A stretch of 13,301 nt of DNA from assembly GCA_029856525.1 (NCBI GenBank), contig JAHQXC010000032.1:1-13301 (forward strand), in the 5' to 3' direction. The notes beneath the pieces are model-generated. The model saw only the letters and a program-made list of their open reading frames with translations, was not told the DNA's origin and did not search any database. The DNA comes from Candidatus Odinarchaeia archaeon (GTDB taxonomy: Archaea > Asgardarchaeota > Odinarchaeia > Odinarchaeales > Odinarchaeaceae). The translations under genes were made by a program, and so were the position numbers. Shown one piece after another: positions 1-4,926 of the stretch. Each line of letters opens with the position of its first letter. Position 1 is the first letter of the stretch.

Positions 1-1455
1 AAACTCGGATAGAAGACGGCGGCCGCCGCTTAAAACACGTTTAGAATCATAGAAAGCCATGTTACCGGCTCCGGGAATATATTTAAATTCAACAGGGTCA
101 GGGATAGTCTCAAAATATTCTGAAGCCTTACGGTGAACAGCCTTAGATAAAGGGTGCTGAGAGTGCTTCTCAGCTACAGCAGCGAACATGAGAACATCTC
201 TTTCAGAAGCGTTGAAACCGATGATATCGGTGACAGACGGTTCCCCTCTAGTTAATGTACCAGTCTTATCGAAGACGATTGTAGTAAGACTTTGAGCAGC
301 CTCCAGGTACTCGGCTCCACGGATTAGAATACCGGATTCAGCGCCCTTACCTACACCGACTATTAAAGCCGTCGGCGTTGCGATTCCTAAAGCGCAGGGA
401 CAGGCGATGATCATAACAGCTATAAAAGAGAGTAAGCCCACACTGTAATCGCCGAGAATAAAAGTCCATGAGAGAAGAGAGATAAAAGCTGCTAGAATAA
501 CACCTGGAACAAATCTAGCTGCAACCCTATCAGCTATCCGTTGAATAGGAGCTGAAGACGCTTGAGCTTCTTCAACCATTCGAATAATCTGGTTTAAAGT
601 GGTTTCAGCGCCTATCCTAGTCGCTTTAATTTTAAGAAAACCTGTTAAATTAACAGTAGCCCCGATCACACTGTCACCGACAGTTTTATCAACAGGAACA
701 CTCTCACCGGTGATCATCTTCTCATCGATGGATGAAGAGCCTTCAACGATCACACCGTCAGCCGGGATCTTCTCACCGGGGGAGACTAAGATTAAATCGT
801 TTAATCGAATATTAGAAGCTGAGATAACCTCAACTTTACTGTTTCGAATAACTCTAGCCATAGTAGGAGATAAATCCATCAGCTTCCGGATAGTAGCGGA
901 GCTGCGTTTCTTAATAGACTCCTCTAAGTATTTACCTAAAAGAACAAATGCGATGATAATAGCAGCTACATCAAAGTAGACGTCTCTAGGAGTGAAAGGG
1001 AGAAAACCTGGAGCGAACACGGCGATAGAACTATAAATGTAAGCGGTTAAAGTTCCAACAGCGATCAGTAAATCCATGTTCGCAACCCGGTTTCTTATAG
1101 CTTTAACAGCACCCTTATAAAAAGTCCAGCCGCCGATAAATTGAATCGGCGTAGTGATAATGAATAAGATAACACCGTAGTTCAACCATGGAAGTAAGCT
1201 GATAGGAACCCATGTGAAAAAAGTTACACCTGCAGCTAAAACTAGAAAAGCCGCCGCTCTAAGAGCCGCTAAGAAAATAGCCCCTGTTAAAGCCACACTC
1301 ATCCTTCTACGCATAGATTTAAGCTCGCGTTCAGGGGATTCGAAGATGCGAAGACAGGTCTCACTGCAAAAATAATATGTGCGACCGTTAACCACGGTTT
1401 TGAAAGGCGTCTTCTCAGGGTCTACTTCCATGCCGCAGACAGGGTCTCGAACCAT
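1..1455 (-). CDS. copA: Heavy-metal (probably Cu+) P1B-type ATPase with N-terminal YHS/TRASH metal-binding domain; 3' end runs off the window
   Basis: Not in the ORF track; translated by hand from ATG at 1455, open for 485 codons to the edge. Motifs: [13 protein letters not shown]...[12 protein letters not shown] (YHS/TRASH), [34 protein letters not shown] (CPC 394..402), DKTGT (256..270), SQHPL. The C-terminal YN/MxxSS subtype motifs lie outside the window. Confidence 0.93.
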
Positions 1456-1462
1456 AAAGAAT

Positions 1463-1485
1463 ATAACAGTGTTATCGAATATAAA
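1463..1485 (-). promoter_or_regulatory. Putative copA promoter: TATA-like TTTATAT (1479..1485) with downstream palindrome ATAAC-N3-GTTAT (1463..1475)
   Basis: The TATA-like box lies 23 nt upstream of the ATG, a spacing typical of leaderless archaeal mRNAs. No SD is visible. A perfect 5-bp inverted repeat sits between the TATA box and the start. Confidence 0.5.
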
Positions 1486-1497
1486 TCTAGCTATAAA

Positions 1498-2106
1498 TCA
1501 AATATCAGCCAGTAAAGCTGAAACACGCCCCTCCACCATCTCAGTTGAAGCTGAAGCTGGAAGAGAATCTATTAAAACACCTCCACGGAGAAATAGAATA
1601 ACAGGGGTCTCAGATATGTTGAAACGGGTACAAATAGATGAAAGCTTACAGTCAGCCTTATAAAAATAGATTCGACCCTTATAATTCGAGGCTAAAGAAG
1701 CTAAAACAGACTCTAAACGCTCACATCCACCGCAGCTTCCATCGTAAACTAAGAGGACAACAGGCTTAAAAGTCTCTAAAACAAGACCTGGAAAAGTGTG
1801 ATCGTCGATCCTGCGTAGAACCCTCCTCTTTCTAAATAAGCTTTTAAGCCTGGTTAAACCGCTCTCATAATCTTTATAAGCGATACTATAACCTAAGTTT
1901 TCGAGCACATCTTCTAAAACAGGTAAATCCACACGGCTGTAATCATATTTAACAGAGACAACACCGCTCATATAATCCATTTTAGCGTCAACTACACCGT
2001 CAACCCTGCTTAGAATATTCTCCACGTCAAGCCTGCATTTAGCGCAGTTAACACCTCTAACAGGAATCCTCCTCTCAGCGATCTTAGCTGAACCCATAGA
2101 AATCAT
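1498..2106 (-). CDS. HMA (CopZ-like) domain fused to a thioredoxin-fold domain
   Basis: N-terminal IPVRGVNCAKC...LSRVDGV...VSVKYD...LENLGY matches the HMA GMxCxxC fold. C-terminal KPVVLLVYDGSCGGCERL...FYKAD...FNISETPVILF matches Trx CxxC plus the cis-Pro motif. The start could also be the Met at 2097. Confidence 0.82.
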   Translation of the reverse strand: MISMGSAKIAERRIPVRGVNCAKCRLDVENILSRVDGVVDAKMDYMSGVVSVKYDYSRVDLPVLEDVLENLGYSIAYKDYESGLTRLKSLFRKRRVLRRIDDHTFPGLVLETFKPVVLLVYDGSCGGCERLESVLASLASNYKGRIYFYKADCKLSSICTRFNISETPVILFLRGGVLIDSLPASASTEMVEGRVSALLADI

Positions 2107-3620: not shown

Positions 3621-4895
3621 TTAAGAACCCTCAATCTCCCTGTAGATTCTAATAATCCTCTCAAAATTATCGCGAGCCTCCTTCAAAGCAGACTTAGATG
3701 TACCAGCGTTAACATAGTGGTTAATATACCAGTCACGGTTGAAAAGCGAGTCGAAACGTTCCAGTATACGTGTAAAAGGCTCGGCGATAATAGTGTTATT
3801 AGTTAAAAGACAGATCTCCCTGTCGAAGTCGACGGGGGCACTCTCACATATACCGTATTTTAAACCTAAATCAGGGTGAACACCCGGAGCGAACGCCACG
3901 TTAGCTTTAATATCGCTCATAATAGTGAAAGCGTTCTCTATAGCAATATTACCTCGAAACATTAAAACAGAGGAAATAGTTTTACCCTGACCGCTACAGT
4001 TCACCATGTAATGAGTCGGGTCGAAGCATCTCTCAACCAAGTCTAGTTCAGTGGACATTTCACTCTCCTCTCTAGTTAAAGGAGCTATAGAGGGAATAAT
4101 GAATTTAGTCTCAGGTAAAGCTACAAGGTTATGAGCCATCTCCATTAAATCCATGTTAAGCGGACCAGGGAATCGCAGAGAAGCTGTAATAGAAGCCATC
4201 ACCCGTCCGATTAGAAAATTAAGATCCGAGAACTGCTTGATCACAGGGTAATTCAACTGGTCTTTAACAATTCTTATAAGAGCGGTGTTATCGAATAAGA
4301 CAACCAGATCCGAGAATCTAGCTAAATGGTTTAAGCTTAAAACCGTGTTATAAGGCGCTAAAGTCACATCGTTAACCTCTGAGGGGAGAATACTAAAGTT
4401 GAGAACACCTTTATCAGGGAACTCTCTCTTAAGAGTCTCAGTTATAAGAGAGCCGAAGCCGCTGCCGGTTCCACCGCCAAGCGTGTGAATCACGAGAAAC
4501 CCTTGAAGCGTATCAGGCATAGTATCCCTAATCTTCTCTAAGATAACGGGTATAAGCTTCTTACCGGTCTGGTAGCCTATAGACCACACGTTGTGAGCTC
4601 CAGAGTAGCTTAAAACCATAAGATCCTCGGAGAAAAAAGAGCCCAGCTTCCTCTCTTTCACGAGAAATTCTACAGCTAAAGGCTCCAAGTCGACGAAGAG
4701 AGCGCGAGGGTGAAAGCCGTCCGGAGCCTCCACTAAGAAAACAGATTTATAATCAACTTTATCCTCGGCTTCAGGCCTCCTCTGATTACTCTGAATATCC
4801 ACATCATGCTCCTCGCAAATCCTCTTCCAAAAATTGTAGCCTATCTGATTGCCGCCTTGACCTACATGTAAAACTAATATCTCTCTACCAGGCAT
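3621..4895 (-). CDS. Asgard archaeal tubulin (OdinTubulin-like)
   Basis: MPGREILVLHVGQGGNQIG (cf. MREI...GQCGNQIG), RALFVDLEP, GAHNVWSIG, signature GGGTGSG (G140-G146, 4458..4478), PYNTVLS, DNTAL, T7 loop LRFPGPLNMDLME and RDWYINHYVNAG (cf. FxHWYxGEG). The tubulin-type C-terminal helices are present, unlike FtsZ/CetZ. Confidence 0.97.
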   Translation of the reverse strand: MPGREILVLHVGQGGNQIGYNFWKRICEEHDVDIQSNQRRPEAEDKVDYKSVFLVEAPDGFHPRALFVDLEPLAVEFLVKERKLGSFFSEDLMVLSYSGAHNVWSIGYQTGKKLIPVILEKIRDTMPDTLQGFLVIHTLGGGTGSGFGSLITETLKREFPDKGVLNFSILPSEVNDVTLAPYNTVLSLNHLARFSDLVVLFDNTALIRIVKDQLNYPVIKQFSDLNFLIGRVMASITASLRFPGPLNMDLMEMAHNLVALPETKFIIPSIAPLTREESEMSTELDLVERCFDPTHYMVNCSGQGKTISSVLMFRGNIAIENAFTIMSDIKANVAFAPGVHPDLGLKYGICESAPVDFDREICLLTNNTIIAEPFTRILERFDSLFNRDWYINHYVNAGTSKSALKEARDNFERIIRIYREIEGS

Positions 4896-4910: not shown

Positions 4911-4926
4911 GATATTTTTTAAAGAT

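Follow-up and report, generated by a model that had tools for sequence, protein, structure and literature searches.

A single-copy OdinTubulin ortholog and its conserved flanking genes in an Odinarchaeum species

Results

The tubulin gene and its neighbourhood

The stretch of DNA analysed (13,301 nt; hereafter the window) carries at 3621-4895, on the minus strand, an uninterrupted frame of 424 codons followed by a stop. Its product (P0001, 424 aa) matches the Pfam families Tubulin (PF00091; E 2.5e-45) and Tubulin_C (PF03953; E 1.3e-14), both above their cut-offs. The plus-strand reading of the same interval was discarded: stops occur throughout that frame. The first-pass annotation of the window had placed a tubulin at these very coordinates, to which the strand (minus) is now to be added. 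The genes of the window and the motifs of the tubulin are listed in Table 1, where, as throughout the text, residue numbers of P0001 are linear from Met1.

Table 1. Genes in the window, with the motifs, catalytic residues and upstream element of the tubulin gene
Feature	Residues	Coordinates	Strand	Remarks
HMA-thioredoxin fusion (202 aa), then P1B-type copper ATPase		1-2106	-	downstream of CC486
CC486, coiled-coil orphan	486 aa	2140..3600	-	downstream of tubulin; alignment A2
Tubulin, P0001	424 aa	3621-4895	-	Tubulin, Tubulin_C
C-terminal end REIEGS		3624..3641	-	no acidic tail
T7 loop and start of H8, FPGPLNMDLMEMA	242-254	4134..4172	-	contains N247, D249, E252
E252	252	4140-4142	-	catalytic pair with D249
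D249	249	4149-4151	-	catalytic pair with E252
T4 signature GGGTGSG	140-146	4458..4478	-	includes T143
T3 loop GAHN	99-102	4590..4601	-	invariant in six orthologs
T1 loop GQGG	12-15	4851..4862	-	invariant in six orthologs; alpha GQAG, beta GQCG
A/T-rich TATA-like element, TTTAAAAAATAT		4912-4923	-	17-28 nt upstream of tubulin ATG, in 31-bp gap
X545, orphan helical protein	545 aa	4927..6564	-	upstream of tubulin; no Pfam family; alignment A1
KaiC-fold protein	252 aa	6571..7329	-	Pfam KaiC, E 1.9e-08
Nucleotidyltransferase-domain gene	277 aa	7414-8247	-	
DEAD/Hel308-like helicase	724 aa	8758-10932	+	

The genes for the nucleotidyltransferase, the KaiC-fold protein, X545, the tubulin, CC486, the HMA-thioredoxin fusion and the copper ATPase follow one another in that order, all on the minus strand and 6-84 bp apart; the gaps that separate the tubulin gene from its two neighbours measure 31 bp and 20 bp. 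Six genomes from two families (loci L016-L020 and the window) share the order X545-tubulin-CC486. The complete 13 kb (aconitase, helicase, nucleotidyltransferase, KaiC-like, X545, tubulin, CC486, HMA-thioredoxin, copper ATPase) is collinear in G301 and in the closed chromosome of strain LCB_4 (G303; 1.42 Mb), the genomes of the genus that reach that far; in G302, a 6.2-kb contig carries the KaiC-X545-tubulin-CC486 block only. The sister family keeps nucleotidyltransferase-X545-tubulin-CC486, with X545 and CC486 there only 25-32% identical to their counterparts. All four genomes of the genus (window and L016-L018) have the KaiC-like gene in the block; it was not found in the sister-family stretches that were fetched (L019 and L020).

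The 252-aa KaiC-fold protein scores far under the NCBIfam cut-offs. The nucleotidyltransferase protein has a Phe/Leu-rich C-terminal half, and its sister-family counterpart, at 30-33% identity, is likewise encoded upstream of X545. The helicase gene and the tubulin block are transcribed away from each other, with 510 bp of intergenic DNA between them, and the helicase shows a weak SWIM zinc-finger match at 534-561 (E 0.0042, below cut-off). On the other side of the block, the N-terminus of the copper ATPase resembles a TRASH/YHS-type Cys motif, and the copper module is syntenic within the genus.

Where the window has the TATA-like element ahead of the tubulin gene (Table 1), the three remaining genomes of the genus show similar A/T-rich stretches. 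In the sister family, we found a GGAGG Shine-Dalgarno sequence instead, 8-9 nt upstream of the tubulin start. The tubulin gene may have a promoter of its own inside the block.

Identity, copy number and phylogeny

In the PDB, P0001 finds the crystallised OdinTubulin of LCB_4 (7EVB) at E 2.5e-268, aligned from 1-424 to 1-424 without gaps; a direct count over this ungapped alignment yields 387 identities in 424 positions (91.3%). The hits that follow OdinTubulin have E-values of about 1e-75 to 1e-70 and comprise the Lokiarchaeum AtubB, BtubB, a Heimdallarchaeal tubulin and eukaryotic beta-tubulins (best non-Odin matches: 9f6t_B, 4.2e-75; 2btq_B, 1.4e-72; 24rt_A, 1.4e-71). The exact sequence of P0001 is already contained in NCBI, NCBI nr and Logan. 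P0001, the LCB_4 protein and the PDB chains fall into one common 90% cluster. Among the 1.84 billion cluster representatives searched, the Odin type makes up just one 50% cluster, represented by P0005 at 73% identity, and everything outside that cluster is at most 37% identical.

PF00091 matches three genes in the assembly that contains the window (G000; 1.32 Mb in 127 contigs, 93% complete): besides the tubulin described here, there are two of FtsZ type, which lie on other contigs. The first-pass annotation had noted the lack of a second tubulin gene in the window, and the statement can be extended to this 93%-complete assembly. Heterodimeric tubulins come as two paralogs, in prokaryotes normally side by side, one of which has Lys for the catalytic Glu; such a pair is absent: the single tubulin of window and genome carries Glu at position 252. 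Among 400 sampled genomes of the phylum, a tubulin was found in 8. These comprise the four species of the genus (four out of four), two of the three sister-family genomes, the tubulins of which are 69-72% identical to that of the window, and two unrelated genomes with adjacent paralog pairs (G047 and G138).

We inferred a quick maximum likelihood phylogeny (LG+G4), in which rows L010, L013 and L014 (three of the four from Lokiarchaeum) as well as one of the genome's own FtsZ, L001, had been extracted in the wrong orientation and are to be disregarded (two dropped, two fragments). The ten rows of the Odin clade group together with an SH-aLRT of 100 and the genus with 99, P0001 being sister to LCB_4 at 94. 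The phylogeny that the earlier annotation had called for thus sets P0001 inside the Odin clade, next to LCB_4. The quick LG+G4 tree does not settle where that clade belongs with respect to the alpha-like and beta-like groups, and the literature likewise leaves this unsettled (PMC9871819, PMC13394414); an affinity of Odin tubulins to AtubC has been reported (PMC13394414).

By its sequence, then, the gene encodes an ordinary ortholog of OdinTubulin, a structurally and biochemically characterised family, as the first-pass annotation had guessed when it proposed an ortholog from a related genome. The host belongs to the genus Odinarchaeum, as a species distinct from but close to Ca. Odinarchaeum yellowstonii LCB_4.

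A mixture of alpha- and beta-type motifs

The T7 region was described beforehand as FPGPLNMDLME, which is indeed found within FPGPLNMDLMEMA. In a MAFFT alignment with an alpha-tubulin (P0075, for which D251/E254 follow its own numbering) and a beta-tubulin (P0088) as references, the Pro of FPG corresponds to beta, alpha having FDG, so that the motif is rightly called beta-like. In the same alignment, D249 and E252 fall on the alpha catalytic positions D251/E254, opposite the Lys of beta, which bears out the assignment made by eye. The T1 loop also reads as announced, GQGG in place of the GQAG of alpha and the GQCG of beta. For T3, the GAHN motif is present, but the GAGN against which it had been set is not the general form; it is found in beta only, while alpha has DAANN. 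Furthermore, P0001 is without both the 3-aa M-loop insertion of alpha- and beta-tubulins and the 8-aa insertion specific to alpha, as is OdinTubulin (PMC8956254).

Among 273 collected tubulins, the combination of GQGG, GAHN and FPG..D..E is confined to the Odin clade; alpha-like sequences mostly have GQAG and FDG..D..E, and beta-like sequences GQCG, GAGN and FPG..D..K. The hydrolytic residues shared by OdinTubulin and alpha, the Glu-to-Lys change in beta, the alpha/beta hybrid character of OdinTubulin and its higher identity to an alpha/beta hybrid sequence have all been described (PMC8956254). The features singled out by the first-pass annotation are therefore real and nothing new, since the 91%-identical ortholog of a sister species was published with them by Akil et al. 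2022 (PMC8956254).

The text of that paper names the T7 residues Asn246, Asp248 and Glu251, whereas a linear count on the 7EVB chain gives 247, 249 and 252; for A100, H101, T143, F222 and N226, text and linear count coincide. The offset means that D249/E252 as numbered here, and in the earlier annotation, are the D248/E251 of PMC8956254.

Conservation of the tubulin

Six Odin-clade orthologs from two families share 278 invariant positions out of 424, the remaining 146 varying. A100, H101, T143, F222, N226, N247, D249 and E252 are all invariant, as is every nucleotide-contact and catalytic residue named in Akil et al. 2022. The positions of FPGPLNMDLMEMA are unchanged in the six orthologs save for P245, which is Q outside the genus. 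Compared with the crystallised LCB_4 chain, P0001 has 36 substitutions and misses the terminal Gln. These substitutions are mostly conservative (R/K, I/V, S/T, D/E) and are concentrated between residues 25 and 43 and, in the C-terminal domain, between 359 and 419; none of the 36 touches a named nucleotide-contact or catalytic residue. Within the genus, the tubulin gene has a dN/dS of 0.04-0.05 at a dS of about 1: it is under purifying selection.

The C-terminus

The chain ends in REIEGS, as previously remarked, and has no E-hook. From H11 to the end, P0001 counts 45 aa with a net charge of +1 and the proteins of the Odin genus 45-46 residues with +1 to +2; in the alpha and beta examples the same segment is longer, 57-58 aa, and carries a net charge of -12 to -16. 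In the predicted protein, the acidic tail is thus absent and the H11-H12 segment is, besides, about neutral and not acidic. It is a reasonable inference, drawn already from the sequence in the first-pass annotation, that partners would have to bind the filament body, the acidic tail being absent.

Predicted mechanism and polymer

Crystals of the LCB_4 OdinTubulin contain a GTP-bound homomeric protofilament, and GTP is hydrolysed within them, upon which the intermediate domain moves (PMC8956254). There, the T7 Asp and Glu of the upper subunit position the hydrolytic water, N247 (linear numbering) is at the cation site, and the main-chain amides of A100 and H101 contact the gamma-phosphate and the hydrolytic water in 7EVB (PMC8956254). 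Tubules were assembled from OdinTubulin as the single component, the architecture being known from in vitro assembly; at high temperature, curved protofilaments coil up to form them (PMC8956254). GTP-dependent assembly of such homopolymers and the dependence of GTP hydrolysis on the T7 Glu are on record for the LCB_4 protein only (PMC8956254).

We read the same mechanism for P0001 because the residues involved are identical to those of the crystallised ortholog. GTP would be bound by T1-T6 of the lower subunit, and an identical subunit would stack on top, its T7/H8 residues N247, D249 and E252 completing the active site. N247 and E252 would hold a second cation, while D249 and E252 would position the attacking water. 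As every subunit carries the Glu, each longitudinal interface should be competent for hydrolysis, unlike in the alpha/beta heterodimer, where the Lys of beta disables the N-site. Hydrolysis would then curve the protofilaments, leading to their coiling into tubules at high temperature. The "self-activating homopolymer" of the first-pass annotation agrees with the published work on LCB_4, and for P0001 the term would hold by virtue of the ortholog. Taken as a whole, the reading of P0001 as an OdinTubulin ortholog that forms a self-stacking, hydrolysis-competent homopolymer appears highly probable to us, with polymerisation and mechanism carried over from the literature.

The flanking proteins X545 and CC486

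Both genes beside the tubulin had been noted in LCB_4 by Santana-Molina et al. 2023, who stated that they have no homologs anywhere (PMC9871819). Contrary to that statement, we found X545 and CC486 in six genomes. A word-indexed homolog search with X545 returned the four proteins of the genus only; the sister-family orthologs, at 25% identity, came to light only by synteny and BLASTP. The flanking genes are under purifying selection (dN/dS 0.08-0.28), with strongly conserved C-terminal motifs in X545 (GERGW.KR and CIP..Y) and the motifs LIRRTGIR and KLF in CC486.

Pfam and NCBIfam give sub-threshold coiled-coil matches only for either protein, and neither resembles BtubC or any Pfam family at a detectable level. 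We modelled both with AlphaFold from six-sequence alignments. The X545 model (pLDDT 90, pTM 0.72) is an all-helical arrangement of stacked bundles with a small C-terminal alpha/beta domain; that of CC486 (pLDDT 72) is a long coiled-coil hairpin with a conserved, poorly resolved C-terminal helical domain. A Foldseek search of the X545 model against the PDB retrieved nothing at E <= 0.001. EzrA (E 0.083) and the GCP chains of the gamma-TuRC (E about 0.5) were set aside for X545: their TM-scores are low and they constitute no evidence. Wide searches with VIA-align delivered generic three-helix bundles and coiled coils only, at Z of 9-15 for X545 and 9-11 for CC486, values no higher than the noise stated for helical models; the C-terminal domains of both proteins are barely covered by these searches. 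Similarities to Prc1/Snf8 and to ATG16 have been proposed for the flanking genes (PMC9871819).

Alternative readings

Two readings would deny that the gene is an archaeal tubulin proper. P0001 could be a division or shape protein of the CetZ or FtsZ type and no true tubulin: the UniRef name of the LCB_4 ortholog, "Tubulin-like protein CetZ", and its PDB name point that way, and the protofilaments of the published tubules coil around the circumference, which is more FtsZ-like. However, Tubulin_C is matched, the FtsZ model TIGR00065 of NCBIfam gives 21.9 bits where its cut-off requires 295.2, the PDB entries that match best outside the Odin type (E about 1e-70) are AtubB, BtubB and eukaryotic beta-tubulins, identity to alpha and beta amounts to 33-35%, and the genome has two FtsZ of its own. 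Both sequence and structure family refute a CetZ or FtsZ identity, which we regard as very improbable. Even less credit is due to an origin of the gene in eukaryotic contamination of the assembly or in a very recent transfer. Tubulins are rare in Asgard archaea, as the count of 8 in 400 genomes illustrates, but the neighbourhood is collinear with that in the genomes of the genus, including the closed LCB_4 chromosome, GC content is even across the region, and even the closest sequences from eukaryotes share only about 35% identity with P0001. Synteny refutes this origin, which we take to be practically excluded.

A third reading complements the homopolymer and leaves self-assembly in vitro intact: in the cell, the tubulin would work only together with X545 and CC486, which would nucleate, bundle, anchor or cap the polymer, and the three-gene cassette would be the functional unit. 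The gene order persists in six genomes of two families although the flanking proteins have drifted to 25-32% identity, compared with 69-72% for the tubulin; the genes lie on one strand with gaps of 31 and 20 bp, the flanks evolve under constraint (dN/dS 0.08-0.28), and X545 and CC486 are long helical or coiled-coil proteins like many cytoskeletal partners. There is a precedent, too, in BtubC of the btubAB operon (PMC9871819). Against this, the fold searches yield generic helical-bundle matches only, below the noise level for helical models, and synteny by itself does not demonstrate binding. We give this functional unit slightly less than an even chance. The narrower proposal that X545 and CC486 are dedicated tubulin-associated proteins that recognise the filament body is put forward more tentatively, as a possibility that we rate below the former; recognition of the filament body would follow from the lack of an E-hook and from the neutral H11-H12 surface.

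Comparison with known tubulin systems

The single-gene, self-stacking OdinTubulin ortholog that we favour resembles its LCB_4 counterpart in nearly every respect: length is equal save for one terminal residue, the T1, T3, T4 and T7 motifs are identical, and the LCB_4 gene is likewise single-copy, without an acidic tail and set between the same flanking genes. Eukaryotic alpha- and beta-tubulins belong to the same fold family (33-35% identity), with which P0001 shares the T7 Asp/Glu of alpha and the FPG of beta. They differ in that two genes supply a heterodimer, in place of one gene here, in that both insertions and the E-hook are theirs only, and in their strongly acidic H11-H12, which is neutral in P0001. 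The published OdinTubulin polymer is a coiled tubule, as opposed to the microtubule of 13 protofilaments (PMC8956254).

AtubA/AtubB (Lokiarchaeum ossiferum, Heimdallarchaeia) and the bacterial BtubA/BtubB are, like P0001, true tubulins of prokaryotes. They are encoded by tandem paralog pairs that give rise to heterodimers and mini-microtubules (PMC13394414), whereas the Odin type is single-copy. The btubA-btubB-btubC operon of Prosthecobacter also sets tubulin beside a gene for a dedicated non-tubulin partner (PMC9871819); X545 and CC486, by comparison, are putative partners that show no similarity to BtubC.

OdinTubulin is important for eukaryogenesis because it serves as a model of what tubulin was like before the alpha/beta duplication, a case that was argued in 2022 on the 91%-identical protein. 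To this, P0001 adds natural sequence variation only, which tells tolerant positions from the unchanging residues of the active site and the nucleotide sensor. The flanking pair provides concrete candidates for archaeal tubulin partners, a lead that is already in the literature for one genome (PMC9871819). Should the proposal hold, X545 and CC486 would be the first archaeal MAP-like factors and an instance of tubulin binding independent of the E-hook.
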